Shown here piece by piece: positions 9,084 through 48,904 of a DNA stretch of 64,000 nt (its first letter is position 1; each line of letters begins with the position of its first letter). The notes under the pieces were generated by a model. The model made no database searches and was not told the DNA's origin. It saw nothing but the letters and a program-made list of their open reading frames with translations. This DNA is from Methanobacteriota archaeon (lineage in GTDB: Archaea > Thermoplasmatota > Thermoplasmata > SG8-5 > JAGLSY01). Made by a program: the position numbers and the translations under genes. The stretch lies in the NCBI GenBank assembly GCA_020696385.1, contig JAEHCQ010000003.1, positions 151,624 through 215,623 of the forward strand, given 5' to 3'.

Positions 9084-9431
9084 ATGAGATTTCTGTATCC
9101 ATCTAACCGAAGGTTATGGTCTATGGCAGGTGTATCATTCAATAGGATCATGGGTATCTGCATCATACTGTCAGGTGCCGGGACATTGATACTGGGCGCG
9201 GTTTATCCTGAAATCATAAGGGACATATACTGGACAAGTACAAACCTCGGCCCCATGGTCACCGCACTGGGGGTCTTTCTTTTCATAATCGGGATATTGA
9301 CATACCTCAATGATGGCAGTAAAGAAGGCTCTGGAGATGATATGCTGAACATCATCTCTCTGGGTGAACAAAACACTGGCAGTTCATATGAAGGTAATCA
9401 GGATGATCAAAACTTGAATGGCGAAACATAA
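9084..9431 (+). CDS. Small two-TM hypothetical membrane protein
   Basis: Two hydrophobic helices; its last codons overlap the displaced pckG tail copy. The start may be 9123. Confidence 0.6.
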   Translation: MRFLYPSNRRLWSMAGVSFNRIMGICIILSGAGTLILGAVYPEIIRDIYWTSTNLGPMVTALGVFLFIIGILTYLNDGSKEGSGDDMLNIISLGEQNTGSSYEGNQDDQNLNGET

Positions 9432-9455
9432 TTCCCATATCGGTCTTGTGCGTCC
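9407..9455 (-). repeat. Displaced copy of the pckG 3' end (matches 9643-9691)
   Basis: 46/49 identical; the three differences (TTC/TTT, AAA/AAG, CAG/CAA) are all synonymous; encodes DAQDRYGNYVSPFKF*. Confidence 0.92.
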
Positions 9456-9642
9456 GTAAGCCTTTTCTTTTACCCTCGCTCCTCTGGCTCACCCTCCAAA
9501 AGAACAAGTATTCCAATATCGACCAAACAAGTTTGGAAAATAGATGCGCGAAAACACGCATCTAAAAAAGAAAACTCGGGTGAGCCTGCTCGCTCGGGGC
9601 TATTACTAAAGATTATATGCTGAAACTCTCACCTAGTATCAA
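9456..9642 (-). mobile_element. Structured non-coding tail-associated element, copy E1 (core 9473-9599)
   Basis: On the gene strand: CCCCGAGCGAGCAGGCTCACCC...GGGTGAGCCAGAGGAGCGAGGG with internal AGATGCG/CGCATCT and CCAAAC/GTTTGG hairpins; homologous to the 23.8 and 48.2 kb copies. Mobility is inferred. Confidence 0.65.
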
Positions 9643-11535
9643 TCAGAATTTGAATGGCGAAACATAATTCCCATATCGGTCCTGTGCGTCCCCGAGTCTT
9701 TCCTTCTGATCTTCCAGAACATCAAATAATTCTTCAGGAGTGTAGAGAACCCTGGCCGCATACATCTTCAATGTTCTCTTGATCTTGGCAAGATGTTGGG
9801 GTATTCGGACCGTGAACTGATTGATATACTCATCCTCCGTGTATTTAATATCAGGGAAGATGTCCTCGAATATCGGGACAAGATCATAATAATATGGAAT
9901 AAGGCCAGTCGGTGTCCTGATGGCCTTTACCTCATTGTTCACCCTCTTGTCCATCCAGCGAACCCATATTTTCTTGTCACTCTTGTGATTGAGATATTTC
10001 CCGCTCATGTCCTTGAGGAAATAATTAACAGAAAATATACGCGGTGGATCTGGCATATCCTTGGCGAAATCAATGTGATTCTTAATGTAGGTTCCAATTG
10101 GAACAGATAGGAAATCAATATTGGACATTGGATTGAACTTTCTCACACCGCGTTTTCCCAGAGTGGCCGCCGTGGTCTCTGATTCGAGAGCAGCAGCTTT
10201 TGTAACAACACCATGTATCCAATCAAAAGACTCCTCCACCGGAACAAAGGTATCCGAATCCCTTCCACCGTAGATGATCCCGCTGACCTTCACACCATTC
10301 GGATTGTGTAGGTTGACATCCACATTTTCCATGTTCTCAAGTGCCATGCAGAACCTGGCATTCTTGTGAGCCGGGGGTATCTTCCTCCCCAGGTCATCCA
10401 GCTTACCATCGAACCAATCACCAGAATGGTTAATGCCCTTGCCTGGCCATGCATCTGTTTTGCCATCCCAATACGGCTCATTCTTGTCTGTGACCAGTAT
10501 ATTGGAAAATATGATCTCCGCATCCGAGTTTAGAGCATCCCATTGAGACTTGTCATCGGATGCATTGATACCCGGCAATATGCCGAATATACCTCGCTCC
10601 ATATTCACTCCCATGATGTTTCCATCGATCTTCCTGAGCAATGCGATATCATCACCCACTATCGTATCACCCGCGATAGTGGCAGTGGATGTCTTTCCGC
10701 AGGCGGATGGGAATGCGCCAGCGAAATATGTCATTCTTTCTTCACTATCCCCGACACCCATCAATAGCATGTGCTCGGCCAGCCAGCCTTCCTTGGATGC
10801 CTTGTTTATTGCCAATCGCAGAGCCAATTTCTTCATGCCGACCGTATTGCCCGCATACTGCGTATTGGTGCTGAATATCGTATTCTCCAGCAGGTCGATA
10901 TAGACTCTTCTTTTCTTCAGGTCACGGCTGACCATCAGATCCAGGCCAGCTTCCTGAAGCCTACCCTGTGAATGAACGAATCTGAATATCTGTCTATTCT
11001 TTCCATTCTTGACGAATTCATCGTATGCCTGCCTGTAAAGAATATCCTCGGAATGCGCCACATATGCAGAGTCTGTTAATTGAAGACACGGAATTGTAAA
11101 AGGCGAATTGGTCGGCCCCAGGCTGAAGAATCGGACATACATCTCCCTGCCCTTCATCATCCTGTGCAGGATCTTGTGTATCTCCTTCAATCCCTTCTCC
11201 CGGTTCATGGCATTGATCTCGGGACCGATATTGTGAGATTCTGGCATCAGGAATTTAGTATTATCTTTATCCCTGGCCTGGTCTTTGAAATTATCAAAAT
11301 GAATTGTATGGTTCGGCATGGAAAGCCGAGCTTCCTCTCTATTGTGACGGGCGGATTTCCTGATATAATCAATATCCTCTTTTTCATCAGTGCAGACAAA
11401 AACACTTGCTGGCCTGCAAAGATCGATATATTCCGCTACAAAATCATGAACCCGCGGATTATCTATGGCTATCAGTTTCTTGAAGTTTTTATCATCCAAG
11501 TGGCTTTCTAGAAGCCCAATGGCGTCCTGATCCAT
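9643..11535 (-). CDS. pckG: Phosphoenolpyruvate carboxykinase (GTP)
   Basis: WLAEHM, AFPSACGKT, VGDDIA, HKNARF, YGGRD and VNYF motifs. Confidence 0.96.
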   Translation of the reverse strand: MDQDAIGLLESHLDDKNFKKLIAIDNPRVHDFVAEYIDLCRPASVFVCTDEKEDIDYIRKSARHNREEARLSMPNHTIHFDNFKDQARDKDNTKFLMPESHNIGPEINAMNREKGLKEIHKILHRMMKGREMYVRFFSLGPTNSPFTIPCLQLTDSAYVAHSEDILYRQAYDEFVKNGKNRQIFRFVHSQGRLQEAGLDLMVSRDLKKRRVYIDLLENTIFSTNTQYAGNTVGMKKLALRLAINKASKEGWLAEHMLLMGVGDSEERMTYFAGAFPSACGKTSTATIAGDTIVGDDIALLRKIDGNIMGVNMERGIFGILPGINASDDKSQWDALNSDAEIIFSNILVTDKNEPYWDGKTDAWPGKGINHSGDWFDGKLDDLGRKIPPAHKNARFCMALENMENVDVNLHNPNGVKVSGIIYGGRDSDTFVPVEESFDWIHGVVTKAAALESETTAATLGKRGVRKFNPMSNIDFLSVPIGTYIKNHIDFAKDMPDPPRIFSVNYFLKDMSGKYLNHKSDKKIWVRWMDKRVNNEVKAIRTPTGLIPYYYDLVPIFEDIFPDIKYTEDEYINQFTVRIPQHLAKIKRTLKMYAARVLYTPEELFDVLEDQKERLGDAQDRYGNYVSPFKF

Positions 11536-11717
11536 GGTCTTATCCCATTAAATTACAGGCCACATTGGACCTGGCATTTATCCCATACGGGAACATTCGG
11601 ATTTCTGACTTGAAACCGTGATTACGCTAAGTGAAATAAAGGTTTCCACGAATATTGAATAATACAATGATCCGCAAGTCGAACTATAAAGACTTGCGTT
11701 TGGCCTTCGTCTCAATA

Positions 11718-13016
11718 TTATTTGTTCAGGTATTCGCCCGCTCTCTCCATGCCGATCTTGATCTTCTCCAGGTCATGGACCATCGGGCCGTATGAAACTC
11801 GTATCGCATTCTTCAATGACTTGCCGAATCCTCCACCGGGTATGAAGAGAACTCCCGTGTTTTTGAGCACGTCCTGAATGAACTCGTCACCATTTGTTCC
11901 AACATCCACCACGGTGTACAGTCCGCCCTGTGGTGTGAGTGCCCTCATCCCAAGGTTCTGGTCAATGGCTTTCATAGTGACATCCGCGGCCTTCTGATAA
12001 TCCTGTCTGGTGGTCTCAAGATAGGATGCCAGACTTCCGTTTGGAATGGCTTCCTCAAGATAATCCACCATCGCCATCTGATGGAAGGTATCCGGGCACA
12101 GGGTACTGCACTGCTGGACTCTTTCCATTCCATCTATGACGGTCGGGCTGGCCTCGATCCATCCGGTTCGGCGACCCAGGCTTCTTGCCCACTTGGAATT
12201 GGAATGAATCGTTATGAGATTTGGATAGTCATTTGGCGACCAGGAGAAATATTCAGGATACTCGCCAAAGTACTGGGTCTTGTAGGCGAAGTCGATCACA
12301 AGATATGCATTGAATTCCGCGCATATCTGGATAGCTCCTTCCATGAACTTCTGTGGAACTATCTGGCTGGTCGGATTGTCGGGTGAAGGAACCATTAGCA
12401 AGCTGGGTCTTCGCAGGTCCATTATTTTGCGAAGATCTGCCAGGGCTTTGTCCACATCTGGCATGTATTTCCACTGATCGGTATCCATGACCTTGAGATA
12501 GGCCACTTCCGCCCTGGGCACGACAAGATCTATTCCAGTGGAATCGTGGACGATACCGCTGTCCGTGAGAGCGAATACCATCTGGCCGTAATAATTTGCA
12601 TAGGTCGGATCAAGAAGTACAACATCCTGGCCAGGCTCCGTAGTGGTCAGGAACATATCATGAGTTAATTGAGTACTGCTCTGGCCAATTATTATGTTCT
12701 GGGAGCTGATGTTCTTCATATTGAACAATTTCAATTCCATCTCGGCAATTAGCTCTCTATATCTGAGATCGCCCAGCGTGGCACTGTAAGCACCGGTGGT
12801 ATGGAAGCGAGTCTTATCACTGGCTACATCGATATATTTCTGTCTCAGAGGCTCTGGAGCCGGGTGGTTTACCCAACCTCCGCCAAATGATATCACATTA
12901 TCAGGGTCCAAGCCCATATTGATTATGTTCTGCCTCTCGGCCATTTTCATTATCTGCCTTATAGGGGAAGGTGTTTTTATCTGCTCCTGGACTACCTTGG
13001 ACAACTTCAATGCCAT
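11718..13016 (-). CDS. PLP-dependent class I/II aminotransferase
   Basis: DPTYANY, PDNPT, DFAY, SNSKW..LGRRTG and IPG..FG....RVSY motifs. Confidence 0.9.
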   Translation of the reverse strand: MALKLSKVVQEQIKTPSPIRQIMKMAERQNIINMGLDPDNVISFGGGWVNHPAPEPLRQKYIDVASDKTRFHTTGAYSATLGDLRYRELIAEMELKLFNMKNISSQNIIIGQSSTQLTHDMFLTTTEPGQDVVLLDPTYANYYGQMVFALTDSGIVHDSTGIDLVVPRAEVAYLKVMDTDQWKYMPDVDKALADLRKIMDLRRPSLLMVPSPDNPTSQIVPQKFMEGAIQICAEFNAYLVIDFAYKTQYFGEYPEYFSWSPNDYPNLITIHSNSKWARSLGRRTGWIEASPTVIDGMERVQQCSTLCPDTFHQMAMVDYLEEAIPNGSLASYLETTRQDYQKAADVTMKAIDQNLGMRALTPQGGLYTVVDVGTNGDEFIQDVLKNTGVLFIPGGGFGKSLKNAIRVSYGPMVHDLEKIKIGMERAGEYLNK

Positions 13017-13112
13017 TTATCTCACCGAGGTGGCAATCTCCTGCACTCTATTAAAATTTATGTGAATAATGGCAAAACATACATATATTCAAGTTAACCT
13101 ATATGTGAATCA

Positions 13113-13922
13113 ATGGCTGCAAAAAAGGCAAAGACCACGAAAAAGGCTGATACAAAGCCAAAGACCCCTACCAAGAAGGAGTCCAAGCCAAAAAAAGAAA
13201 CAAAGGTCAAACCAAAAAAGCAGACGAAGGCAGAGCCAAAGAAAAGCTCTGCCAAAAAGACTCAGCCAGCACCAGTACCAGTACCAGCACCTCCAAAGAA
13301 GGCCGAGCCCACCCTGAAGTCACTCTCCAATCAACTGAATAGAATGGAGAAAAAGATCGTCAAGCAGGAAGACACAATCAAAACACTCAAGGAATCCAAC
13401 CGCGAAGCCAATAAAAAAATATCCAGCATGGAGAAGAAGCTGGATACCAGGATCAAGCGGGAAGAGGTCATCATGGACGCCCTGAGCCTGAACTCCAGAA
13501 GTAAAAAGGGTAGCAAGGGAGTGGTTGGGGAATTCAACTCCTCCATATTGAAAGTGGAGGAGTATCTGCTGAACACTGGCAATAGAATTGATAATATACT
13601 TTCAGCGGTCAAGAACCATCGTGAATATCTCGTGAAACTGAACAAGCGGGTGTACAAGGAGCACAGCCGCGAGATGATCGAGATACGCGTGGACATCATC
13701 AGCAATTCACTTACGCTGATGATGGTCAATGGGTTTGATTTTGATAAAAGCCTCATCAAGGATGTTGAAAAACTGAAGAAAATGATGGAAAAGAAGGATT
13801 CCGAGCTGAGCAAGATCAGGAAGAAGATGAACACTCTGGACAAGAAATATGAAGAAGAGCTGGAGAGATTCGACTTCAAATCGATTTATGAAAAGAAGCA
13901 GGACCTGCCAGGATACCATTGA
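13113..13922 (+). CDS. Hypothetical coiled-coil protein with Lys/Pro-rich N-terminal tail
   Basis: 269-aa ORF; about 65 low-complexity basic residues followed by heptad-like helices. Confidence 0.7.
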   Translation: MAAKKAKTTKKADTKPKTPTKKESKPKKETKVKPKKQTKAEPKKSSAKKTQPAPVPVPAPPKKAEPTLKSLSNQLNRMEKKIVKQEDTIKTLKESNREANKKISSMEKKLDTRIKREEVIMDALSLNSRSKKGSKGVVGEFNSSILKVEEYLLNTGNRIDNILSAVKNHREYLVKLNKRVYKEHSREMIEIRVDIISNSLTLMMVNGFDFDKSLIKDVEKLKKMMEKKDSELSKIRKKMNTLDKKYEEELERFDFKSIYEKKQDLPGYH

Positions 13923-13973
13923 TTTTTTTCAGCTGGCTTATTGAATTATGTAATATTATTTCATATAGATATG

Positions 13974-13994
13974 TCAATGTACATTGATGTACAT
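13974..13994. promoter_or_regulatory. Palindromic candidate operator upstream of the 14031 gene
   Basis: Perfect 14-bp palindrome TCAATGTACATTGA (13974-13987); ATGTACAT repeated at 10-bp spacing; TTAAATA box just downstream. Confidence 0.5.
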
Positions 13995-14030
13995 ACAATT
14001 AAATATGGGCTTTGACAATATACAATATAG

Positions 14031-14732
14031 ATGGCAAGACCAAGGAAGAAGGAATACAAGGCAGGAGATCAGCTCCACTTCATAATCACAGAGGATTTTG
14101 TTGACTCAGCCAATGCTTTCTTCGGTCATTGCGACGAAGAAATGATCAATGCCTCCAGCGCGATAAGAAGATCAATGGAGGAATGGCTGTATAGGGCCAG
14201 CAAAGGCAAGGGACCAGACCAGGATGCAAACGGGTCTGGAGATGCATTGGCCGATCCTCCACCCATACATGCTCAATCCAGCTGGGGGGCTGGAAACGGA
14301 AAAACAACTTCGATCAAGGGTCAAGGTGTGATCGAACAGATGTTTCTCATCTATAAGGACGGAGCATTGCTTGCTCATGCCACCAGCCATGTCACACCAG
14401 ACCTCGACATGGACATCTTCTCCAGCATGCTGACACTCATCCAGGGCTTTGTAACAGAGAGCTTCAGTGATATGAAAGATACCAATATCAGCATGATAGA
14501 GTTTGGAGACAAAAATATTGTTATCGAGCCTTCAAGAAACCTGGATGTCACCCTCGCGATCGTCTATTTGGGAGATGATCAGAGAGAATATATCGAGAGC
14601 ATTGCCGAGGCCATACATTATGAACTGGAGTTCACATTTGGCAAGAAATTGAAAAAATTCGATGGCAATCTGGAAATGGTCAGAGGAATACGTGAGGTGA
14701 TGCTGAAGCAGATCTATGTGCGGAAAGACTAA
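14031..14732 (+). CDS. Putative ribbon-helix-helix-like N-domain fused to a longin/roadblock-like C-domain
   Basis: MARPRKK..LHFII..SSAIRRSMEEW N-terminus; IEQMFLIYKDGALLAH...FSSMLTLIQGFV...IEFGDKNIVIE C-terminal pattern. Fold calls are inferred. Confidence 0.55.
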   Translation: MARPRKKEYKAGDQLHFIITEDFVDSANAFFGHCDEEMINASSAIRRSMEEWLYRASKGKGPDQDANGSGDALADPPPIHAQSSWGAGNGKTTSIKGQGVIEQMFLIYKDGALLAHATSHVTPDLDMDIFSSMLTLIQGFVTESFSDMKDTNISMIEFGDKNIVIEPSRNLDVTLAIVYLGDDQREYIESIAEAIHYELEFTFGKKLKKFDGNLEMVRGIREVMLKQIYVRKD

Positions 14733-14992
14733 TTCTTCAGTTCCTTCTTCTTTTTGGCATTTTTAAGAAGGGTGACAAGCTTCATTTTTGATTCCTCGAG
14801 CTTCATCTCCCTTTCTCGCAGAGACCGTTCACGATCGATAATGTCGCGTTCCCGTTTTTCAAGATGCTCTTCTCTTTCCATGATCATTGTCAAAAGCTTC
14901 TGGCGCTCCTTTTGAGTACGTTTTTCTATATCATCTAGTTCTTTCTTGCGTTGATCTAATTTATCTTCGCTCACAGGCAACACCTCAATCAA
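14729..14992 (-). CDS. Small charged coiled-coil protein
   Basis: E/R/K-rich heptads; overlaps the GTPase stop, suggesting translational coupling. Confidence 0.65.
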   Translation of the reverse strand: MIEVLPVSEDKLDQRKKELDDIEKRTQKERQKLLTMIMEREEHLEKRERDIIDRERSLREREMKLEESKMKLVTLLKNAKKKKELKN

Positions 14993-15509
14993 AGCTCTTC
15001 GCGATGGACAATCTGGCTAATTCGGCAAAAGCATCCTCGATGCCCTCGCCAGTCTTGGCAGAAGTTATGTAGAAATTTGCATTGTGTTTGGCTGCTATCT
15101 CGGTCAATAGTTCCTCACCAAACTCGGCCTCATCCACGAGATCATTCTTATTTGCCAGGATGACAATTGGTATATCGCCAGATATCTTTGTCACAGCCTC
15201 GATCCAATAATCGATGTTCTCCGCAGTTGGCTTACGCGTGAGGTCACATACCACGATCGCCCCAGAAACATGCTCGAAAGCAACTGATTCGATAATGCGG
15301 AAGTGCTTCTGGCCCATGACATCCCACAGCATGAGGTTGACATCAACCTCCTCGCCATCTATCTCGACCTTGGTCTCCTTCTTCATGACCTTGGCACCCA
15401 TGGTCATTATGTAAGAATCATCGAATTTATCGATAACGAATTTCCTGACTAGACATGTCTTTCCGACCTCGGGATCCCCAACAAGACAGACTTTCCTAAC
15501 GTACGTAAT
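14985..15509 (-). CDS. Rab-like small GTPase; probable ATT start
   Basis: G1 GDPEVGKT, G2 YIMTMG, G3 WDVMGQ, G4 NKND, G5 TSAK; AGGTGAT RBS directly before ATT at 15509. Confidence 0.9.
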   Translation of the reverse strand: MTYVRKVCLVGDPEVGKTCLVRKFVIDKFDDSYIMTMGAKVMKKETKVEIDGEEVDVNLMLWDVMGQKHFRIIESVAFEHVSGAIVVCDLTRKPTAENIDYWIEAVTKISGDIPIVILANKNDLVDEAEFGEELLTEIAAKHNANFYITSAKTGEGIEDAFAELARLSIAKSFD

Positions 15510-15576
15510 ATTATCACCTTGATTAGTAGTAGTATTGTAATAGCAAATGCAATATTTAATGAGTATGCTGAAAATA

Positions 15577-22914: not shown

Positions 22915-23037
22915 GATTGACGGTCAAAGCGGTGGGGCCACACCTGGTCTCATTCCGAACCCAGAAGTTAAGCCCACCTGCGTTCTGCGCTGTACTGTGG
23001 TACGAGAGTCCACGGGAACCGCAGACCGCTGTCAGCC
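22915..23037 (+). rRNA. rrf: 5S ribosomal RNA (stand-alone)
   Basis: CACACCTGGTCTCATTCCGAACCCAGAAGTTAAGCC core; terminal helix TTGACGG/CTGTCAG; T-tract downstream. Confidence 0.96.
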
Positions 23038-23740: not shown

Positions 23741-23741
23741 G

Positions 23742-23801
23742 CCTGCTCACTCGGGGTTTGCTTATATGAGCTTACCCCAGCTGTGTTCTATATTACACCC
23801 C
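23742..23801 (-). repeat. Exact 60-bp duplicate of 23890-23949 (40 nt gene tail + 20 nt element start)
   Basis: CCTGCTCACTCGGGGTTTGCTTATATGAGCTTACCCCAGCTGTGTTCTATATTACACCCC occurs twice with a 148-bp period. Confidence 0.95.
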
Positions 23802-23909
23802 TAATACGTCCCCACTTTTTTCTTTAACCTCGCTGTGCTGGATCACCCTCCAAAGAAAAAAGACGGACAAAATAAGAAACTCGGGTGATCCTGCTCACTC
23901 GGGGTTTGC
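23802..23909 (-). mobile_element. Structured non-coding tail-associated element, copy E2 (minimal form)
   Basis: On the gene strand: CCCCGAGTGAGCAGGATCACCCGAGTTTC...TTTGTCCGTCTTTTTTCTTTGGAGGGTGATCCAGCACAGCGAGGTTAAAGAAAAAAGTGG; lacks the internal hairpins. Mobility is inferred. Confidence 0.65.
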
Positions 23910-25043
23910 TTATATGAGCTTACCCCAGCTGTGTTCTATATTACACCCCATATGGCCAAGATCCTCTCTCTGCACTGTCAGTGACCCATCCAGCTTCCGG
24001 AAGGTGAAGTCATCAACTTCCGCCGGATACTCATTGTAATACAGTATGGACTTCATGCCCCAGCGCCTCGGTTGCTGGAATCTCCAGTAGGCCCTGGCAT
24101 AGGCCTGGATCTTGATGAACATCTCCTTCTCATCATCCTTGCCAGACACATAGAAGACTGGCAAGCCCCTCTCGATCTCGTGCTTGATCTTGATGTTCTT
24201 CTTGTCAAATAAGAAAAGTTCTTTTGTTGGATGGTGATAGAACCTCATGTTCTTCGATAATCGGATATCACCCCAGTCCAGCACGGATGTTGGTTTTTCT
24301 GTTGTGCGGAATATCTGTGGCCCGAAAAATGGGTTAAAATATTCGAAATAGCTACCATTCTCCGAGTGGCCGATACCCCAGTACCATGTGGGTGCTGGCG
24401 CGTTCACGGTCACGCGCTGTTCATAAGCAGTTCCTTCAACAGGCTGGCCGTCAATAGTGCCCTTCATCTTCATGCCGTATATCTTTAAGATATTGTACCC
24501 CATCTTTTTGGTATACTGGCGTTCATTGAAGCGATGCTCCTGCATATAATCGTTCCAGGGTGTCATCTCGAAGTGAAAATCATTCTTGTCATCCTTGACA
24601 TTGACCGTGTACTTGTCTGGCCCTCCAAAAAAGCGGTAGTCCGCGCCTTCGACCAGGGGCTTGAGTTCGCCTTCCTCTCCATCATGGCGAACCTCAAAGT
24701 CAGATTCCTTGATGAGTAGCGGGTCCTTCATGGTATTTCCATCATACCACCAGGCACAGGTCATGCCATTGAATTTCAAAACACCTTCATCATCCAGGGT
24801 GGGCAACTGCTTGAGCTTCCACTTCATGTCCATGACCTTGATATCATCAGTATATTTCGTTGACCATAGTATCATGAACTGTTTGGTCTTCCCGGGATTA
24901 TCAGGATCCTTGATAAAAAATATCCACCACCACCACCACCAGGTGAGATTGGGTAGCATATTGTCTGTTTTCAATACCCAAATGTTCTCATATGGCTTGT
25001 GAGCATCTGATTCAATTTCATTGACCATCCTGACTGGTATCAT
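23910..25043 (-). CDS. Hypothetical aromatic-rich protein (possible AttH/tocopherol-cyclase-like beta fold) with a W6 run
   Basis: 377-aa ORF; TWWWWWWIFF, GTAYEQRV..PAPTWYWG and IEHSWG. Fold is a guess. Confidence 0.7.
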   Translation of the reverse strand: MIPVRMVNEIESDAHKPYENIWVLKTDNMLPNLTWWWWWWIFFIKDPDNPGKTKQFMILWSTKYTDDIKVMDMKWKLKQLPTLDDEGVLKFNGMTCAWWYDGNTMKDPLLIKESDFEVRHDGEEGELKPLVEGADYRFFGGPDKYTVNVKDDKNDFHFEMTPWNDYMQEHRFNERQYTKKMGYNILKIYGMKMKGTIDGQPVEGTAYEQRVTVNAPAPTWYWGIGHSENGSYFEYFNPFFGPQIFRTTEKPTSVLDWGDIRLSKNMRFYHHPTKELFLFDKKNIKIKHEIERGLPVFYVSGKDDEKEMFIKIQAYARAYWRFQQPRRWGMKSILYYNEYPAEVDDFTFRKLDGSLTVQREDLGHMGCNIEHSWGKLI

Positions 25044-40557: not shown

Positions 40558-40721
40558 TTGCCATATGGTTACATTGGTTCTATTTATGCCATACTTAATA
40601 CTACTGTTAATATTACTAATAACCTATATATACAATTAATGTTTACTATAAGTAATAACACACCAAACATAAATTCTCTAATTATAAATATAGATTTAGA
40701 GAAAATACCGATCGGGGTGAC

Positions 40722-43700
40722 TTGATGAGAAGGGGAACGAACAATAGTGTGAATTTCGCAGGAAAATGTATGAGCATCATCATCGTATGGTGCATGGTCT
40801 TGAGTGGCTTCATGGGCCTGTTCATGGTCAATGTGGGAACAGCCAGTCAGATCAATCCAAACACGATCAGCGTGGATCTGATTGTCGACTCAGGTGACTT
40901 TGTAATAGAGAGTTTCCCAGGCGACCCTTGGATCTATGATCTTGATGGTAATCTGACTATCAGTGGCGCAAACTCATTGATATTGAAGAACTCGACATTG
41001 AATATACTTCAATTAGGTGCGTACAGTCTGGATGTTTCAGTTGGTGGAACCATTGAAATGATCAATTCCACGATCACTACAGAAGACCTCCAGTATATCG
41101 ATGCCAGTTTTATTACAAATTCGAATTTGATAATGGATGACAACTCTGCCCTTCTTTTCCCAGGCAACTTATCCTTTGATGCATCATCTGTTGATATTAA
41201 GAATTCTCAGATAATTAGCCCAGCCATATATTTTGACACTTGTACAGATGTGAGTATTGCGGACTCTGAAATAGAGGTTCCAGCAAATGCAAATGGCTCA
41301 TTCAATCTGGACAATACAGAAATGTCAATTATCAACACAGATATAAATCTGGATTACACCACAGATAACAGTACCAATCACCAGATGAACCTAACAGCAG
41401 GTTCATTTGTATATGCCTACAATATGACTGTAGGAGACCTTACAGAATCGATTTTCATCTTTGATGACGCTGTCTCTGAAGTTTACTACTACAAATGGGC
41501 AGATTTCTCGGTTGTTGACTCGAACAATAACCCGATAGATGGAGCGGAAGTCAGCTATGATTTCCACCACACAGATGCAGCAGCCATCACTTATGTGGAC
41601 AGTATGAATGATCTGGCATTAGCTCCACATGCAAATGCAGATGCCAGGATGATCGATTATCTTAACAGTATGTCGCCAGACATAATCACCTCTGCAAACT
41701 ATGATGAGACCAACAGTGACGGAATGGCCATGATCCCTCTCTTCACTACCCTCCACTCACAGGCAGAGCAGGCAATAGATGTCGATGGTCATCACTATGG
41801 AGAATACGATGCAGATATCACATACATGGCAGCAACTGGCAGTACCTATGTTGACTTTTCACCTTACCCGAACATTGAATGGATGGACAATACAGTCGAA
41901 ACCCCACCAGTCCAGCTAACAGCCATCACACTAGTTAGGCCGGATCTCACACTCGCAACAAGTGATATCACCTTCACACCAGCAACCGGCATCATGATCG
42001 GTGACTCGGTCGAGATAAATGTCACAATAGAGAATGTGGAGATCACAAATGCATTGGATGTCTTTGTCCAAGTATTTGATTATGACGATGTCTCTGGAAT
42101 TCCAACCGAGATATACAATACGACCATACCTTCCATACCTGGAAACGGAGATGTTTACTTCCTGGTCGACTGGAACAATATACAGGTCGGTGGATGGCAT
42201 GACATCATGGTGGTCATAGATTACAATAATTCAATAATAGAAGAAGAAGAGCTCAATAATACAGCTATTGCTTCAATTTATATAACCCCAGACCTGCCAG
42301 AATTGTCTATCGAAACAGCTAATATCGGCTTCTCACAGGAGAACATCTCCTTTGATAATGAGATCACGATAAGCGCCAGGGTGCTCAATAATGGAACATT
42401 GAACTGGACCATCGTGATAGTATCCTTCTATGAAGATAACCCAGATATGAATGGGGACGGAATATTGGATATCGATGCTGGAGACAATTTCATAGCATCA
42501 AGCGTCATTGGAATAATAGAACCCAATATCCTGGTAGAGACTTCAGTACCATGGACACCATCGGTCGATGGCACATACACGGTATATGTCTGGGTTGATC
42601 CAAGCAACAATATCCCCGAATTCTATGAAGATAATAATCTGGCTTCCAGAGATGTCATCATAACACCAAAACCAAACCCAACAATAACAAACCTGGGATT
42701 CGATGATGAGACACCGATGACAGGACAAACAGTTGTAATATCACTGGACCTGATCAACACAGGTAATATAGACGCAACAGGAAATATCACAGTAGAATTC
42801 TTCGATTATGACCTGAATGGAGTCCTGATCGGACAGATCGGAACAGCACATATGAAAAGAGACCTGAACATGAGCGAGACCTTCCTGATCCAACAGAACT
42901 GGATACCCGTGAACATTAATTACCACACCATTGAGGTCATCATAACCTCGGATGCGGATGTTGATGAAGGCGATCTCACAGACAATGAATTCTACATTGA
43001 CATTCTGGTATATGATGGGGGTGTCTTCGATCTTATAGTCAATGACGCATTGCCACCATTATCAGCAGGTGACCTTGAGATAATAGGACATTATGGACAG
43101 GATGGATATGTTCTCGTTGAGGAAAATGGAATATTGACAATCGATGCATCCACTTTTGACATGAAACTGGAGAGGTCCTATCAATACAATATCATAGTCA
43201 AGGACAATGGAACATTGAACATTATGGATACAATATTCTGGACACAGAACAACTTCATGGACTTGCACATAATGGATAATGCAGTTGTCAATGTGGCAGG
43301 AACAAGCTTGCCAGATCAATTGAACATAATCGCAGGTGACTCTTCGCAGATCACATTCCACAATTCACAAGTTAGAGGTGTGTTCAGTGTACCGGATTCG
43401 GATGCAAATGTAAGTCTGGTGGTAGAGAACTGTACATTCAGTAAGCCAATAACACAATTCGGTGGAACATCTGTTGCTCATCTGACAGCTTTGACCATGG
43501 CCATACCATCCATCCAAGCACAAGACACAGCAGATATCAAGATATACAGGTGGTTGGAAGTTGAGGTCATCGATGTAAATGATTATCCAATACCCGGCGC
43601 AATGGTCGACCTGGATTATCAGGTAGGTAATGCACTTCAGCCAGGTCTTCACCAGACCAAGACAACAGGTGCAGATGGAAAAGTATTGTTCAGAACTCTC

Positions 43701-46523
43701 AGTGATATAATCAATCACACAATACACCAGAGCTCGGCATCTGTTAGCAGTTACAAGTTGACCTCTTCATTCCTGACATTCCAGAACCACATAAACATAA
43801 CTTTGCCATCATATCCCGACATGACAAGCGGCTCGAATTACATAGATAACCTTGTCATCAAAATGAGTGATGTCAGACCAGATCTTGACCCACCATTATG
43901 GGCATCTGCTACGACCATCGGAAAGGATGAGGCCGTGATGATATGGACAAATGTCTCGAACATGGGAGATGTGGATGCTCACGACGTCGTAGTCCGATTT
44001 GCAGATGAGACCAATAGTTACGTTCTTGAGGATGTACCTATTGCATTGCTTGAGGCAGGCACATACCAGTGGGTGTACATCAACTACACATGGCCTTTGA
44101 TATCAGATATCGGAGAGCACCTGGTGAACGTGACCGTGGATTGGAACAATAATATTATAGAACAGAATGAGACAAACAATTACAATTCCACCTTGATACA
44201 TGTTATTGGAAGACCAGACTTATCAATAACAGATGATAGTATTGTGATATACAATAACAATGATGACATGGTGATCAACTATCCAGTGAACATCGGCGTC
44301 ACAGTTGACAATACGGGAGACATCGACATCAGCAATGTAAGTGTTCGTATTTACGATTCTGAAACAAATGGAACTCTCATAGGAGAAACTAATATTGCCA
44401 CCGTACCATTTGATCAATCTAGTGCGGTCTTCATAGAATGGATCCCATCAGTTGTTGGGGATTATGATCTGTTCGTTGTCATTGATGAGAATAATACGAT
44501 CTTCGAAATTCATGAAGATAACAATACAGCAGGAATGAATGTCACAGTTGTGGATTATTCGGATCTGTATGTTTCACAGATAGTCTTCAAAGAACAAAAT
44601 GGAAATGAAGTAGATGAAGTTGATAACAGAACATACGTGGATGTATGTGCTCAGATAATCAATGCAGGTGAGACGCGTAATATAGGAACTGTTCAATTCA
44701 ATGATCATTACGGCAATGAATTCGCTTCCTTTGAACTGCCTTATATGAATCCAGGAGATATCATATGGGCCAATGAAACCTGGTTCGCATCAGAAGACCT
44801 GGAAGGCGACTCAATTATCAGGAACGTCGAGGTGTGGGTGACAACCTACTACACGATGATCGAGAATCCTGTAGGAGACAATAGCCTTGTAGAACCTATA
44901 ACCATCATTGATACACGCGCGGATCTTACCGCCACGGCAGATGATGTCAATGTAACAACAGAGAACATAATCGAAGCCAATAACTTCGGTGTCAATGTCA
45001 CTGTTTACAATGATGGGATCGATACAGCTATTAATTTCACTGTCGAGATATTCTATGATGAGATGGTCGATGGTAATCTCATCGGCAGCATGTTGGTCGA
45101 TAGCCTTGTAGGAAACGATATGACAAGTATGGACATAACCTGCTCCGGTATACCAACAGAAGGCGAGCATTACCTTCTCATATCCATTGACAGAGATGTG
45201 ATAATTGGTGATAACTTCACCGTGAACGGAATGGACTACAACATAACAGGTAATGTTGAAGAGTTCGACGAGATGAACAATGATCTTATCAATGTCACAG
45301 TAGATGTCGAAGCACCTGATTATCAGATCCTCCTCAACTCACCATCGGTTCTGCAGAACTATACATTGGGTGTGGAGAACAATACATTTGTAACAGGAAG
45401 GCTGACCAAGGTCATTGGCGGCCAGGGTGTAGCTGGAATAACAATAACGATTCAGCTTGACAGCAATACCGTGACAACAGTAACAGATGCAAGCGGTAAC
45501 TTCGCAGCACCAATTGACCTTCCAACATCAGTGGGACAGTACACGATAGTGGCAAGCGCGGAGAACTCAGTTGATACATCCGTCCTTATAAATCTGAATG
45601 AGGAAGGCGGCATAGATCCAGTCCTTATCATGATCATAGTTATCATTATCATAGCTGCGGTCATAATAGGTATAACACTTTACTTCAAATTCGTGGGTCT
45701 TGGTAAGACCGTGGAATGTGGAGAGTGTGGTGCTTTCATACCGGAATCAGCTGCAAAGTGTCCAAAGTGTAATACCGAGTTCGAATCAGACACAGCAAAG
45801 TGCAGTGTTTGTGGTGCATGGGTACCAATGAACAGCAAGGCATGCCCAGAATGTAACTCAGAGTTCACCATCGGAGACGAGGAGATCGATGATTACAAGG
45901 CCCAAATGCAGAAACAATATGATGAGGTCGTCAATGGCTTCAGAACAGAAGCCAAGAAAGAACTTGGTAGTACATTCTCAGAAGATGACTTCCAGGCCTG
46001 GTGGGCGACACAGGCAACCTTCATAACCTTCGACCAGTGGCTCAAGGAAGACGAGGAGATGAAACGCCTCGGATCCAAGCCCTGCCCGAACTGTACAACA
46101 CCGAACAGCATAACAGCAACCATCTGCCACAAGTGCGGAACTGTTATGGCCGAAGAGAAGAAGGTAGCTCCAGTTGCAGCTGCTCCAGTGGCTGTGAAGA
46201 AAGCAGCAACACAGGAAAAGGTAGCACCAACACCAGTTGCAGCAGCACCTGTTGAGGATGCACCTGCTCCCGAACCAGCAGCCGAAGAAAATCCAGCAGG
46301 AGATGAGAAAAAGAAATGCCCATCCTGTGGTATGGAACTTGGAGCACATGAAAAGGCCTGTCCAATATGCGCCTATGAATTCGACAAGGGTGAAGAGAAG
46401 CCCCCAGAAGGTGGCAGTCCACCAGCGGGCGGAGCTGCACCCACCAAGAAGGTCGTTAGAAAACCAGTCAAGAAGGTTGTAAGAAGACCAGTACAGAAGA
46501 CTGGTGGCGAAGGGCAGCAGTGA
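40722..46523 (+). CDS. Large cell-surface protein: beta-helix-like and CARDB repeats, TM helix, cytoplasmic zinc ribbons
   Basis: Signal peptide, repeated PDL...D..N.I.E..E.NN motifs, TM VLIMIIVIIIIAAVII, eight CxxC motifs and a basic tail. Confidence 0.85.
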   Translation: MMRRGTNNSVNFAGKCMSIIIVWCMVLSGFMGLFMVNVGTASQINPNTISVDLIVDSGDFVIESFPGDPWIYDLDGNLTISGANSLILKNSTLNILQLGAYSLDVSVGGTIEMINSTITTEDLQYIDASFITNSNLIMDDNSALLFPGNLSFDASSVDIKNSQIISPAIYFDTCTDVSIADSEIEVPANANGSFNLDNTEMSIINTDINLDYTTDNSTNHQMNLTAGSFVYAYNMTVGDLTESIFIFDDAVSEVYYYKWADFSVVDSNNNPIDGAEVSYDFHHTDAAAITYVDSMNDLALAPHANADARMIDYLNSMSPDIITSANYDETNSDGMAMIPLFTTLHSQAEQAIDVDGHHYGEYDADITYMAATGSTYVDFSPYPNIEWMDNTVETPPVQLTAITLVRPDLTLATSDITFTPATGIMIGDSVEINVTIENVEITNALDVFVQVFDYDDVSGIPTEIYNTTIPSIPGNGDVYFLVDWNNIQVGGWHDIMVVIDYNNSIIEEEELNNTAIASIYITPDLPELSIETANIGFSQENISFDNEITISARVLNNGTLNWTIVIVSFYEDNPDMNGDGILDIDAGDNFIASSVIGIIEPNILVETSVPWTPSVDGTYTVYVWVDPSNNIPEFYEDNNLASRDVIITPKPNPTITNLGFDDETPMTGQTVVISLDLINTGNIDATGNITVEFFDYDLNGVLIGQIGTAHMKRDLNMSETFLIQQNWIPVNINYHTIEVIITSDADVDEGDLTDNEFYIDILVYDGGVFDLIVNDALPPLSAGDLEIIGHYGQDGYVLVEENGILTIDASTFDMKLERSYQYNIIVKDNGTLNIMDTIFWTQNNFMDLHIMDNAVVNVAGTSLPDQLNIIAGDSSQITFHNSQVRGVFSVPDSDANVSLVVENCTFSKPITQFGGTSVAHLTALTMAIPSIQAQDTADIKIYRWLEVEVIDVNDYPIPGAMVDLDYQVGNALQPGLHQTKTTGADGKVLFRTLSDIINHTIHQSSASVSSYKLTSSFLTFQNHINITLPSYPDMTSGSNYIDNLVIKMSDVRPDLDPPLWASATTIGKDEAVMIWTNVSNMGDVDAHDVVVRFADETNSYVLEDVPIALLEAGTYQWVYINYTWPLISDIGEHLVNVTVDWNNNIIEQNETNNYNSTLIHVIGRPDLSITDDSIVIYNNNDDMVINYPVNIGVTVDNTGDIDISNVSVRIYDSETNGTLIGETNIATVPFDQSSAVFIEWIPSVVGDYDLFVVIDENNTIFEIHEDNNTAGMNVTVVDYSDLYVSQIVFKEQNGNEVDEVDNRTYVDVCAQIINAGETRNIGTVQFNDHYGNEFASFELPYMNPGDIIWANETWFASEDLEGDSIIRNVEVWVTTYYTMIENPVGDNSLVEPITIIDTRADLTATADDVNVTTENIIEANNFGVNVTVYNDGIDTAINFTVEIFYDEMVDGNLIGSMLVDSLVGNDMTSMDITCSGIPTEGEHYLLISIDRDVIIGDNFTVNGMDYNITGNVEEFDEMNNDLINVTVDVEAPDYQILLNSPSVLQNYTLGVENNTFVTGRLTKVIGGQGVAGITITIQLDSNTVTTVTDASGNFAAPIDLPTSVGQYTIVASAENSVDTSVLINLNEEGGIDPVLIMIIVIIIIAAVIIGITLYFKFVGLGKTVECGECGAFIPESAAKCPKCNTEFESDTAKCSVCGAWVPMNSKACPECNSEFTIGDEEIDDYKAQMQKQYDEVVNGFRTEAKKELGSTFSEDDFQAWWATQATFITFDQWLKEDEEMKRLGSKPCPNCTTPNSITATICHKCGTVMAEEKKVAPVAAAPVAVKKAATQEKVAPTPVAAAPVEDAPAPEPAAEENPAGDEKKKCPSCGMELGAHEKACPICAYEFDKGEEKPPEGGSPPAGGAAPTKKVVRKPVKKVVRRPVQKTGGEGQQ

Positions 46524-46530
46524 TCAAGAA

Positions 46531-46570
46531 TAAGGAGGGCTCTTACGAACCCTCCTTACTTTCCTTTATT
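46531..46570 (+). terminator. Hairpin plus T-rich tract
   Basis: TAAGGAGGG/CCCTCCTTA followed by CTTTCCTTTATT. Confidence 0.6.
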
Positions 46571-46603
46571 GGAACATGAAAATTATATTCACACGGTGAT
46601 ACC

Positions 46604-47011
46604 ATGTCAGAGAGAAAAATTAGAATATTGATCGCAAAACCAGGGCTGGATGGCCATGATAGAGGCGCCAAAATTGTGGCTCGGGCTTTGAGAGATGCTG
46701 GATTCGAGGTCATCTACACGGGCTTGCATCAAACACCGGAACAGATCGTGGAGACTGCCATACAGGAAGATGTGGATGCCATCGGGCTCAGTTGCTTATC
46801 AGGAGCGCACATGACCCTGTTTCCCAAAGTGACCAGATTATTGAAGGAAAGAGGTATAGATGATATACTGGTGACCGGAGGAGGAATTGTCCCCGAGGAA
46901 GATATTCCAAAGCTCAAAGAAGCAGGTATCGATCAGGTCTTTGGGCCGGGTACTCCTTTGCAGGATATCATAGATTATCACAAAGATAATTGCAACAGTA
47001 ACAGGAAGTAA
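46604..47011 (+). CDS. Methylmalonyl-CoA mutase family cobalamin-binding small subunit
   Basis: [27 protein letters not shown] and FGPGT motifs. Confidence 0.95.
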
Positions 47012-47015
47012 TTCA

Positions 47016-47960
47016 ATGGACCTCGCAGAAAGAGTTCTGTCCGGTGATAAGAGGGGCGTTGCAAGACTTATAAGCCTCATCGAGTCAGAGGATGATGAGG
47101 CGTATGTTCAACTTGGAAAGTTACATTCTCACACAGGCAATGCTCATATAATCGGTATTACCGGGCCACCCGGTTCGGGAAAGAGCACCATTGTGGATAA
47201 ATTGGCCAAGGCCTACAGAGAGATAGGCAAGACAGTGGGAATTGTCGCTGTAGATCCAACAAGCCCTTTCACAGGAGGAGCGATCCTGGGAGATCGGATC
47301 AGGATGACCGACCTCACATTGGATCCTGGGGTATTCATAAGAAGCATGGGAACACGTGGACATCTTGGTGGGCTTTCAAGAGCCGCATCCGGGGCTGTCA
47401 GGGTGCTAGATGCCTTCGGAATGGATATCATCATTCTGGAAACAGTGGGAGCTGGTCAATCCGAAGTTGAAATTGTTAGTCATGCTCACACAACTATCAT
47501 AGTCGAAATGCCAGGTCTGGGGGATGAGATACAGACCATCAAGGCAGGCATCATGGAGATCGGAGATATCTTTATCATAAACAAGGCCGACAGGGAAGGA
47601 GCGGACAAAACATCGATGGAGATACAGGCGATGTTGGGTCTGAACCCGAACAAACCTGAATGGGTGCCGCCTATAATTCAAACGATCGCCAGAAAAGGAA
47701 AAGGCGTGGATGCGGTTGTCGAAAAAATAGAAGACCACTATAAATATCTGAAGGATAGTGGGATGTTCGAGAAGATGATCGAGCAGGGAATAAGAGAGGA
47801 ACTTGATATTCAGATAAAAAGTCAGCTCGGAAGAATTATAAAAAATAATATCGATGATAAAACTCTGGAAAAACTTGTAAAAGATATCATCGACAAAAAT
47901 ATCGACCCTTACTCTGCCGCGAAATTTGTACTAAAGGACATTGAAGATATATTGAATTAA
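47016..47960 (+). CDS. meaB: Mutase-associated GTPase MeaB
   Basis: GITGPPGSGKST, AVDPTSPFTGGAILGDRIRM, ETVGAGQSE and NKAD motifs. Confidence 0.95.
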   Translation: MDLAERVLSGDKRGVARLISLIESEDDEAYVQLGKLHSHTGNAHIIGITGPPGSGKSTIVDKLAKAYREIGKTVGIVAVDPTSPFTGGAILGDRIRMTDLTLDPGVFIRSMGTRGHLGGLSRAASGAVRVLDAFGMDIIILETVGAGQSEVEIVSHAHTTIIVEMPGLGDEIQTIKAGIMEIGDIFIINKADREGADKTSMEIQAMLGLNPNKPEWVPPIIQTIARKGKGVDAVVEKIEDHYKYLKDSGMFEKMIEQGIREELDIQIKSQLGRIIKNNIDDKTLEKLVKDIIDKNIDPYSAAKFVLKDIEDILN

Positions 47961-48011
47961 CTGAGCGGCCTTAGTTTTCTATAGTATACATTACAAATTC
48001 AAGATGTGAAA

Positions 48012-48054
48012 AATTATTTCTTATATTTTCACAGATCTTTATGAAGTTCTTGAA
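48012..48054 (-). repeat. Older, decayed displaced guaAA 3' tail
   Basis: Reads FKNFIKICE, then (after a 1-nt deletion in an A run) KYKK*, using alternative codons. Confidence 0.75.
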
Positions 48055-48064
48055 GGTTCATGTC

Positions 48065-48120
48065 AATTATTTCTTGTACTTAGCGCAGATCTTAATGAAG
48101 TTTTTAAAAATGTCTTCACC
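48065..48120 (-). repeat. Displaced guaAA 3' tail (matches 48330-48385)
   Basis: 50/56 identical; all six differences are synonymous third positions; encodes GEDIFKNFIKICAKYKK*. Confidence 0.95.
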
Positions 48121-48329
48121 ACCACTTTTTTCTTTAAACCTCGCTGTGCTGTATCGGGCTCCAAAGAAAAAAGACGGACAAATCGAATCAAGCCAGTCGG
48201 CTTGATCAAAATAAATGCGTAGGCTCCATAGGTAAAGTCGCATTTAAAAAAGAAACTCGCCCAAGCTCGATTTATCGAGATTGTGAAAGCTCAGCTTTGC
48301 TGAGATTCAGCCTGCTCGCTCGGCATGTT
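48121..48329 (-). mobile_element. Structured non-coding tail-associated element, copy E3 (longest form)
   Basis: Shares CCACTTTTTTCTTTAA, CCTCGCTGTGCTG, CTCCAAAGAAAAAAGACGGACAAA, AAGAAACTCG and CCTGCTCGCTCGG blocks with E2/E1; internal hairpins at 48187-48206 and 48213-48245. Mobility is inferred. Confidence 0.7.
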
Positions 48330-48331
48330 AA

Positions 48332-48904
48332 TTATTTCTTGTACTTAGCACAGATCTTAATGAAATTTTTGAATATATCCTCACCGTACTCTGTATGTTC
48401 AACTTCGGGATGGAACTGCACACCGTAAAATGGTTTTTCTTTGTGCGCGAAGGCTTGGTGCGCACAATCTTTTGAATGCGCGAAGTTCTTGAATGTGTCC
48501 GGCATGATCTTGACCTCATCATTGTGAGATTCCCAAACCTGGAAAGGTGATATCACACCCTCGAACAATTCATTTTCCTCTTCGATGATGACGGATGTCT
48601 TACCGAACTCGGGAACAGTCGCGGGTCCTGCGGTTCCACCGTAATATAGTGCCATGAACTGCGCGCCGACACAGATCCCCATGATAGGAAACTCTGCTTT
48701 GTCAAGGTAGTCCCCACTATTTCCCAGCATCAATGCTTCTTCACCAATTCTTGGAGCACCGCCGGATAGAATTAGACCATCTACATCCAGGTCCTCAAAT
48801 GGTGTAGTATTCGGGATTATCTCTGTTTCCACATCGAGGTATTTCAAAACTCGCCATTCTCTATGTGTCCACTGTCCGCCATTGTCTACAACGAAGATCT
48901 TCAT
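48332..48904 (-). CDS. guaAA: GMP synthase subunit A (glutamine amidotransferase)
   Basis: VVDNGGQWTHR, LSGG, GICVGAQ, SHNDEV and QFHPEV motifs. Confidence 0.96.
   Translation of the reverse strand: MKIFVVDNGGQWTHREWRVLKYLDVETEIIPNTTPFEDLDVDGLILSGGAPRIGEEALMLGNSGDYLDKAEFPIMGICVGAQFMALYYGGTAGPATVPEFGKTSVIIEEENELFEGVISPFQVWESHNDEVKIMPDTFKNFAHSKDCAHQAFAHKEKPFYGVQFHPEVEHTEYGEDIFKNFIKICAKYKK

Follow-up and report, generated by a model that had tools for sequence, protein, structure and literature searches.

Why should three unrelated genes in one stretch of archaeal DNA each carry a second copy of their own 3' end? The stretch, called the window below, comprises 64,000 nucleotides (nt) of contig JAEHCQ010000003.1 (positions 151,624 to 215,623) of a Methanobacteriota archaeon of the class Thermoplasmata (GCA_020696385.1). 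It holds three loci, E1 to E3, all on the minus strand, in which a gene tail (copy A) is followed by a conserved element and then by a second tail (copy B). The host genes are pckG (E1), an open reading frame (ORF) of 377 amino acids (aa) (E2) and the GATase subunit of GMP synthase (E3). An earlier note on this DNA had described these three ORF-stop-element-tail layouts, all of which are present in the sequence, and had read them as a system that imports or recodes gene ends. We propose that the elements probably belong to a mobile family of triple-helix RNAs lying close to stop codons, and that the duplicated tails are by-products of insertion and not of recoding.

A repeated element with a three-strand register

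The motif CCGAGYGAGCAGG, allowing at most one mismatch, occurs four times in the window against 0.05 expected, and 33 times in the genome against two matches for the reversed control. A hidden Markov model built from 12 short copies (nhmmer) places about 39 loci of the family in the source genome (G000; 2.28 Mb, a 50-contig metagenome-type assembly, 94.5% complete). A covariance model (R1), a scan that the earlier note had advised, extended the family to other genomes, with matches in 25 of 41 related genomes (1 to 37 per genome). Among 151 genomes sampled across the class, 32 have R1 matches, roughly 700 in all, and these genomes belong only to families f1-f4, f6, f12, f15 and f19; the named relatives are uncultured Thermoplasmata represented by metagenome-assembled genomes. 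At the guaA locus of 14 named Thermoplasmata relatives, the element is found only in G002, the closest genome (about 89% identical in pckG). At the gathering threshold, Rfam detects only a 5S rRNA gene in the whole window (22916-23037, plus strand, 96.3 bits, just upstream of the methyltransferase gene that neighbors E2). Eight copies searched at E<=1 returned one flanking tRNA, two sub-threshold mir-3613 matches and no relevant family.

The core of the element is about 90 nt long, and copies reach about 210 nt through inserted hairpin modules. Its parts follow a fixed order: the motif CCGAGCGAGCAGG, a variable arm of 7-8 nt, GAG, U1 (the first of two U-rich strands), a short loop or the inserted hairpin modules, U2 (the second such strand), GGAG, the arm that complements the variable one, CCAGCRCAGCGAGG, a spacer of 2-4 nt, a tract rich in A that has a single G (the A-tract) and, finally, a subfamily-specific end (GGCTTMC, GTGGGG, TACTC or GCCTG). 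On the gene strand these parts form a rod, with an outer helix of 6 bp, a conserved internal loop, a variable helix of 8 bp, and U1 and U2 on top. In an alignment of 60 copies from five genomes, the rod pairs in 86.2% of cells versus 63.7% in shuffles, the covariation score is 0.585 versus 0.169 in shuffles and 0.02-0.12 with slid partners, and 14 of the 16 rod pairs have compensatory changes. Covariation is thus strong in this test, and that of the inner stem, first noted in E1-E3, is real and far wider than those three copies had indicated. The outer helix CCGAGC/GCGAGG, with its tandem G.A pairs, is swapped whole for ATTTTC/GAAAAT, GCTTTC/GAAAGC, ACACCC/GGGTGT and others, the tandem G.A pairs becoming U-A pairs in the ATTTTC...GAAAAT subfamily. 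G-U pairs (e.g., five at columns 10/139 and 12 at columns 14/135) fit only the gene strand, as do the G.A pairs, in line with the strand-specific fold proposed at the outset. We do not claim a canonical K-turn at the conserved internal loop, as its strands misfit the pattern of a 3-nt bulge plus tandem G.A pairs.

The A-tract is the exact Watson-Crick complement of U2, over 7-13 nt, in all 52 copies examined, and compensations also occur outside A and U (GAAGAA/TTCTTC, GAAGTA/TACTTC, GAAAGAG/CTCTTTC and GGATTA/TAATCC). The longest complement averages 10.1 nt with an element's own A-tract versus 8.3 nt with the A-tracts of other elements. U1 matches the A-tract in parallel, with C where the tract has G. 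For the Watson-Crick match and the parallel match alike, none of 2000 permutations reaches the observed value, a count that overstates the significance because the copies are related to one another. The register is shared by the three strands. The run lengths of A before the G, of U2 after its C and of U1 before its C are 3/3/3 in nine copies, 4/4/4 in 13 and 5/5/5 in nine; eight more copies are 4/4/5, several reading GAT and not GAG ahead of U1. The A-run equals the U2-run in 43 of the 52 copies, and a C stands at the matching position in 50 copies for U1 and in all 52 for U2. Pairing of U2 with the A-tract was scored by anchored counts rather than column by column, because the G of the A-tract keeps its alignment column whereas the position of the C of U2 differs by one from subfamily to subfamily. 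Some copies in genome G004 have GCTCGG after the A-tract, which, judging from its sequence, could substitute for GCGAGG in pairing with the 5' motif.

Read from the sequences, this three-strand pattern is that of pyrimidine-motif triple-helix geometry, with the Hoogsteen register in place. For MALAT1, PMC4836648 gives five U-A-U triples, a C-G-C triple, a C-G pair and four U-A-U triples. The folded molecule is presumably RNA. In it the A-tract, encoded in the genome directly after the rod, would pair with U2 by Watson-Crick bonds and match U1 in parallel, and the result would be a U-A-U triple helix with one C-G-C triple, as at the 3' ends of MALAT1 and viral ENEs.

At 17 of 37 loci, a co-oriented stop codon is found no more than 45 nt from the 5' side of the element, versus a single locus with an antisense stop only (binomial p=1.4e-4), and at three loci or more the element comes after a tRNA gene of like orientation. 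A sense element behind a stop codon or a tRNA gene would cap the transcript's 3' end against 3'-to-5' decay, and the T-tracts of the element could terminate transcription arriving from either side. In other genomes, several copies adjoin the 3' end of a convergent tRNA, on whose strand the complement of the A-tract would be an oligo-T run right behind the tRNA. At L131, Rfam places a tRNA on the opposite strand (276-349) beside element copies, and in the downstream flanks of L123, L129, L131 and L132 the sequence past the 3' end of the element resembles the 3' end of a convergent tRNA.

Variants of the element were also observed. The long copies carry hairpin modules between U1 and U2 (AAATGCG...CGCATTT, AGATGCG...CGCATCT and GATCAAGC...GCTTGATC; window 48126-48323 and 9461-9597, and G000:C46:40825-41037 and C33:252810-252993). 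Similar GAATGCG...CATTCG hairpin repeats lie just downstream of Y1 transposase genes at several loci of genus g5 (L168, L169, L173, L174 and L176), and modules of the GAATGCG type may be a second small mobile repeat. No long copy carrying an ORF was seen in the source genome. The first 13 nt of the 5' motif occur alone, a few nt past stop codons, at G000:C33:134749, C48:46832, C49:2484 and window 23742-23754; internally deleted copies that keep just both ends occur at C11:52345 and C49:2484, and the 13-nt break point recurs. At least two other short repeat families are present in element flanks, some elements lying inside or beside them (G000:C11:77828-77960, C11:201496-201587, C22:133607-133660, C33:98674-98721, C33:120776-120838, C33:137626-137670 and C47:143093-143133).

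Duplicated tails and their turnover

Unless stated otherwise, the features of E1-E3 given here are on the minus strand. At E1, pckG (9643-11535; PEPCK_GTP match, 4.8e-101) ends in its working 3' tail, copy A (9642-9691, stop codon 9643-9645), which aligns over 50 nt with copy B (9406-9455). This displaced tail has an in-frame TAA directly upstream, as read from the sequence, which keeps it from being translated, and runs on into native downstream DNA. Between the two copies are a linker, or variable 5' extension, of 44 nt (9598-9641), which begins with TGATACTAGGTGA and is rich in stop codons, and the element itself (9456-9597; R1 match of 66.5 bits, E 8.8e-13). The element comprises the 5' motif CCGAGCGAGCAGG, the stem CTCACCC/GGGTGAG, the U-rich strands, two inserted hairpin modules and, on its 3' side, the 3' motif, the A-tract AAAAGAAAA and GGCTTAC. 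The linker sequence is unique in the source genome; a similar motif, TGATTAACTAGGTGA, precedes copies in G004. The layout given in the earlier note needs one correction, at E1, where these 44 nt of unrelated sequence separate the stop codon from the 5' motif. A convergent ORF of 115 aa (9084-9431, plus strand) has its last eight codons inside copy B. Its C-terminus reads ...QNLNGET* versus ...NDNVHDNVDK* at the orthologous G002 site, indicating that the E1 insertion or duplication altered the C-terminus of the neighbor.

The 377-aa ORF of E2 (23910-25043) is without a Pfam match. Its tail, copy A (23903-23949, stop codon 23910-23912), is identical at 47 of 47 nt to copy B (23755-23801), and the orthologous pair in G002 is likewise identical within G002. 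The element, here in its minimal form with filler (23802-23902; R1 match of 89 bits, E 3.3e-18), comprises U1 (23869-23879), U2 (about 23852-23862), the A-tract (23815-23825) and GTGGGG plus filler (23802-23814). The solo 13-nt 5' motif CCGAGTGAGCAGG that follows copy B (23742-23754) is probably the remnant of a second element. At E3, the GATase gene (48332-48904) ends in copy A (48324-48385, stop codon 48332-48334), followed by a long element with four inserted hairpin modules (48121-48323; G002 has a short form at this site) and copy B (48059-48120). A third tail, copy C (about 48003-48058; ...FKNFIKIC..., similarity read from the sequence), is older and more diverged. Copies A and B differ in coding sequence at three positions in E1, none in E2 and six in E3; on recounting, all nine are third-position and synonymous, as the earlier note had reported, and E3 has one further difference beyond the stop codon.

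Across the family, 29 of the 39 loci have a direct repeat common to both flanks of the element that exceeds the 99th percentile of a null made from mismatched flanks, which confirms the enrichment of adjacent tail duplicates. The duplicated sequence is the tail of the upstream gene or the end of a tRNA and spans 17 to about 330 nt (17-226 nt for protein tails); some duplications are intergenic (C22:311303), and the repeat on contig C50, of about 310 nt, covers the tail of a Y1 gene, a spacer and a tRNA. Between the fixed 3' end of the element and the start of copy B lie 0-13 nt. On the other side, a linker of 0-53 nt, mostly of unique sequence, separates the end of copy A from the 5' motif. 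A copy that retains only the last 36 nt of the element (C11:78050) has the same A/B anatomy. In protein tails, similarity mostly ends at the stop codon (+0 to +2 nt). Ten of the 39 loci in the source genome have no duplication, and of 20 copies sampled from genomes further away about 16 have none either. Arrays of tail and element occur at seven or more loci, with about 0.4 chance coincidences expected by our estimate. Tandem duplication of the whole tail-plus-element unit was rejected as a general mechanism, the sequence after copy B being like the 5' part of an element, above the null, at only three of 24 loci, all of them arrays.

Differences between A and B are concentrated at the third codon position, as the earlier note had led one to expect: the split over positions one, two and three is 14/7/77, with 77 of the 98 differences synonymous and 21 not (18 loci whose upstream ORF has 100 aa or more). 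This count omits 21 of the 39 loci, which have no duplication, a tRNA, an upstream ORF below 100 aa or a copy B that is not adjacent; C11:577215 was kept, its copy B lying at +86 by a partial nhmmer match and at +3 once the ends are set by the motif. In G002 the split is 3/1/12 (seven loci).

The comparison with G002 covered 1.59 of its 2.1 Mb. Among the 21 loci whose flanks were found there, 15 orthologous sites are empty, with a single clean tail, and six are occupied, as read from BLAST coordinates; C11:530545 counts as empty only by an 84-nt gap versus a 445-nt gap. Such empty-site orthologues had been named earlier as a check. In three-way alignments of A, B and the G002 tail, A and B agree and differ from G002 at 100 sites, only A matches G002 at 44 and only B at 25, so that A and B mostly share the history of their own lineage, with mosaic blocks. 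The insertions at E2 and E3 are orthologous, with a common left boundary and homologous filler and linker in both genomes. At E2, A equals B within each genome although the tails differ at eight sites between genomes, which is concerted evolution. The B copies of E3 in the two genomes differ at five of 54 sites, all third positions. E3 is a mosaic, as is C22:356917 (G002 C11:474593), where the 3' part of B equals A and the 5' part keeps the allele of the other species. Of the 14 differing sites at C3:2427, 11 show the G002 state in A, and B has 11 private third-position changes there; at C11:577279 the last five codons of B are synonymously recoded, including CGC to AGG and CTT to TTA.

These patterns suggest a history in which gains and losses of the element keep pace with the divergence of species in one genus. 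Insertion, we infer, directly duplicates 17 to about 330 nt of the target, so that a gene-end target leaves its tail twice. Copy A would then stay under purifying selection while copy B is overwritten by gene conversion from A. Because native DNA continues directly downstream of B, recombination with alleles of the empty site could refresh it too, intact alleles entering from that side. Selection on A together with conversion or recombination of B would yield the synonymous bias without a recoding device. The earlier proposal of a programmable attachment site, or of a guide from which the gene escapes by recoding, finds no support in the lineage states shared by A and B, the concerted evolution of E2, the loci without duplication and the intergenic duplications.

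Competing explanations and candidate enzymes

Several points weigh against a mobile triple-helix RNA with insertion by-products. On the gene strand, the predicted folds are no more stable than those of shuffles (minimum free energy z of -0.31, -0.04 and -0.27), so that the structural case is carried by covariation, and this covariation would equally suit a fold of single-stranded DNA. A mere 2-4 nt separate the A-tract from the base of a rod of about 20 layers, and yet the tract would pair with U2 at the top of the rod. Rod and triplex cannot coexist on a straight rod, so that a sharp kink at the conserved internal loop, or two conformers, must be assumed. Oligo-T stretches terminate archaeal transcription, and the internal U-tracts could therefore end transcripts ahead of the A-tract. 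The right edge of the duplication, at +0 to +2 nt from the stop codon, is left unexplained by gene conversion, and at four loci the stop codon of copy A lies in inserted DNA. Erosion of a once-longer duplication could place the edge there; in the C50 duplication, however, 250 non-coding nt are still alignable at 15.6% divergence, which speaks against erosion as the whole answer.

The mobilizing enzyme bears on the most serious alternative. The earlier note had found no transposase, integrase or reverse transcriptase in the window. For three families this absence extends to the whole source genome: RVT_1 has no match there and is present in four of 25 element-bearing genomes, DDE_Tnp_1 has none in G000, G001, G002, G003 and other copy-rich genomes, and TnpB has none in the source genome and is almost confined to element-free genomes. 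Across the 41 related genomes, none of the three is positively associated with the element. Beyond the window the absence does not hold for two others, as the genome has four integrase-family matches (contigs C1 and C47) and one Y1_Tnp gene at G000:C50:2010-2357, which fits the IS200 model NF033573 with 119.5 bits.

Under that alternative, which we consider unlikely, the element would be a single-stranded DNA hairpin repeat of the REP/RAYT kind, moved by the resident IS200-type Y1 enzyme, and the fold would be a DNA recognition structure. A Y1 at least 47% identical occurs in 20 of the 151 genomes, all 20 with the element, and in none of the 119 element-free genomes, a co-occurrence that is phylogenetically clustered. 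Within the order this Y1 is a single-copy gene with a promoter-like motif of its own, and tRNA-homologous sequence lies nearby at several loci. A strand-specific fold with conserved feet and variable stems suits HUH enzymes, and the hairpin modules of the element resemble the repeats beside Y1 genes. On the other side, the RAYT model NF047646 gives this Y1 only 28.2 bits, under its cut-off of 80. Twelve element-bearing genomes are without such a Y1 (all seven of family f12, G032 and four incomplete genomes), and an element lies within 1.5 kb of the Y1 gene at only one of 29 loci. Y1 transposition is not known to make a target duplication. The ends of multi-copy Y1 units in family f6 show no convincing likeness to element ends, and a hairpin that serves DNA recognition would not account for a register that covaries in three strands, one of them a downstream A-tract. 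An IS200-type Y1 acting on single-stranded hairpin DNA is the best mobilizing candidate at hand also for a mobile RNA family, as a lead and not as a finding.

The promoter-like motif, ACTTTCRCCCACCCC and TTTATATA about 10 nt apart, precedes the Y1 gene in many genomes (L170:1890-1960 and 1395-1455; loci L166 and L173-L176) and is also found ahead of the adjacent tRNA gene in G000 and G001. Comparing G000:C50 with G002:C1 (L170 and L167), the Y1 gene has the same neighbor genes in a different order. Y1 is about 70% identical between the two genomes while the flanking genes are about 89% identical, suggesting fast evolution or allelic replacement.

A mobile two-state RNA switch coupling translation to mRNA survival is a further possibility, to which we give a smaller chance than to movement by Y1. 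In the rod state, the 5' motif would pair with the 3' motif, leaving the A-tract free. On reaching the stop codon, which lies 0-50 nt upstream, a terminating ribosome would open the 5' motif and free the 3' motif as a linker, upon which the A-tract would dock in the U-clamp to form a MALAT1-like triple helix that blocks 3'-to-5' decay. The attraction of a switch is that covariation backs both sets of pairs, which cannot coexist on a straight rod; under it, the position just past stop codons would be functional.

Somewhat more doubtful is a homology-programmed cassette, the earlier idea of a programmable site. Here scaffold plus tail copy, as a circle or fragment, would import an allelic tail by Campbell-type recombination and displace the old one. 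The anatomy of A, linker, element and B is indeed the product of a single crossover of a tail-linker-element circle, recombination between A and B would excise such circles and leave clean empty sites, and some pairs look like alleles of different lineages (C3:2427 and C11:577279). However, A and B usually share lineage-derived states (the 100 versus 44 and 25 sites above), E2 has been homogenized in situ in both species, most loci have no second linker after B (three of 24 above the null, all tandem arrays), ten of the 39 loci are without duplication, and about 40 different targets would need a separate tail-capture route, of which none was seen.

It is improbable, and slightly more so than the cassette, that the family spreads like a short interspersed element, copied from its 3' end via an RNA or single-stranded intermediate that is primed at a nick by microhomology; synthesis would run to the 5' end, and a template switch to the 3' end of a host transcript or to the target would then make the duplication. 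The hallmarks of a retroposon are present, namely a fixed A-rich 3' end, a variable duplication and 5' truncation. The 3' junction after the A-rich tract is precise, copy B starts G-rich, overlapping the ...CGG or ...GGGG end of the element (read from alignments), the 5' junction varies by 0-53 nt of extra sequence, and the truncated copy at C11:78050 has the usual anatomy. The sense orientation and the right duplication edge at stop codons and tRNA trailers fit as well. Against this stands the distribution of RVT_1 given above, with no match in the source genome, and we know of no transcripts that end at stop codons.

Finally, false tail duplicates from strain mixing or misassembly can be set aside with near certainty: the assembly is a 50-contig one of metagenome type and the copy differences look allelic, but the same element, A/B layout and boundaries recur at the orthologous E2, E3 and tRNA loci of the separately assembled congener G002, 29 loci each have a conserved element between the copies, and family members are present in dozens of genomes.

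Relation to known systems

Three classes of mobile or diversifying element were considered and rejected. Integrase islands also duplicate the 3' part of a tRNA or protein gene, leave the gene intact and have copies that differ like alleles. They are kilobase islands with one fixed site, whereas here a 90-nt scaffold is found at about 30 targets with no adjacent recombinase; an attL/attR structure was dismissed because only 90-210 nt and no ORF lie between the copies and the four integrase matches are on C1 and C47. A classical miniature inverted-repeat transposable element does not fit conserved ends that are not inverted copies, a duplication of 17 to about 330 nt and the lack of a long ORF-bearing copy in the source genome. 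Differences that are third-position (77 of 98 synonymous) and not of the adenine type, without a reverse transcriptase, speak against a diversity-generating retroelement.

The long and variable duplications find their closest likeness in the insertion sequences IS1549 and IS1634, which, according to PMC2266710, generate direct repeats of 8-514 bp on insertion by a mechanism that is not known. The range of the element, 17 to about 330 nt, is comparable, and a mechanism for duplications of gene ends would bear on those repeats. Unlike the element, which has no terminal inverted repeats, IS1549 and IS1634 are autonomous DDE elements, and DDE_Tnp_1 is absent from the source genome and three congeners.

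REP/BIME repeats with their RAYT enzymes are similar in being short, structured, multi-copy and extragenic, in lying at gene 3' ends and in a co-distribution, incomplete for the element, with a single-copy Y1; REPs stabilize upstream mRNA. The Y1 here differs from RAYT in fitting the IS200 model and in being flanked by the repeat at only one of 29 loci, and REPs have no long duplications, A-tract or U-clamp. The repeat biology thus resembles REP/BIME and the duplications resemble IS1549/IS1634, without the defining features of either. For annotation, the family is a warning that duplicated tails with only synonymous differences can stem from gene conversion, with no need of a recoding system.

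The fold itself compares best with MALAT1 and MEN-beta. In these RNAs, as described in PMC4836648, a U-rich double strand (ENE+A) clamps a genomically encoded A-rich 3' tract, U1 running parallel (Hoogsteen) and U2 antiparallel (Watson-Crick) to the tract, a C-G-C triple interrupts the U-A-U triples, and the expected role is protection of a non-polyadenylated 3' end. The element differs from them in being archaeal, multi-copy, apparently mobile and placed after ordinary coding genes and tRNAs, in the long stem with a conserved internal loop below its clamp, and in having no tRNA-like RNase P site past the tract. No relation to MALAT1/ENE by sequence or through Rfam was found in the window and eight copies. 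Viral ENEs (KSHV PAN) and the double ENEs of plant and fungal transposable elements are, according to PMC13541005, also triple-helix 3' protectors on selfish or mobile elements. Unlike the element, with its DNA-encoded A-tract, they clamp post-transcriptional poly(A) in eukaryotic nuclei.

To our knowledge, archaea have no poly(A) tails of the eukaryotic type. The known carriers of 3'-end-protecting triple helices of the ENE type are herpesviruses and further viruses, two long non-coding RNAs of vertebrates, and transposons of plants and fungi. The accessible part of a 2026 review (PMC13541005) lists no archaeal or bacterial case, and we found no archaeal element of this kind in the literature on triple helices, archaeal mRNA stability and Thermoplasmata repeats. 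The element, as read from its sequence, would work like ENE+A without sequence kinship to any curated family. If so, it would provide a compact, sequence-defined 3'-end stabilizer for archaeal genetics, and the dozens of covarying copies in each genome would offer a natural testing ground for the rules that U-A-U and C-G-C triplexes obey. If the fold is real, archaea independently use the same solution as MALAT1 and the viral ENEs for RNAs without poly(A), spread through the genome as a repeat.

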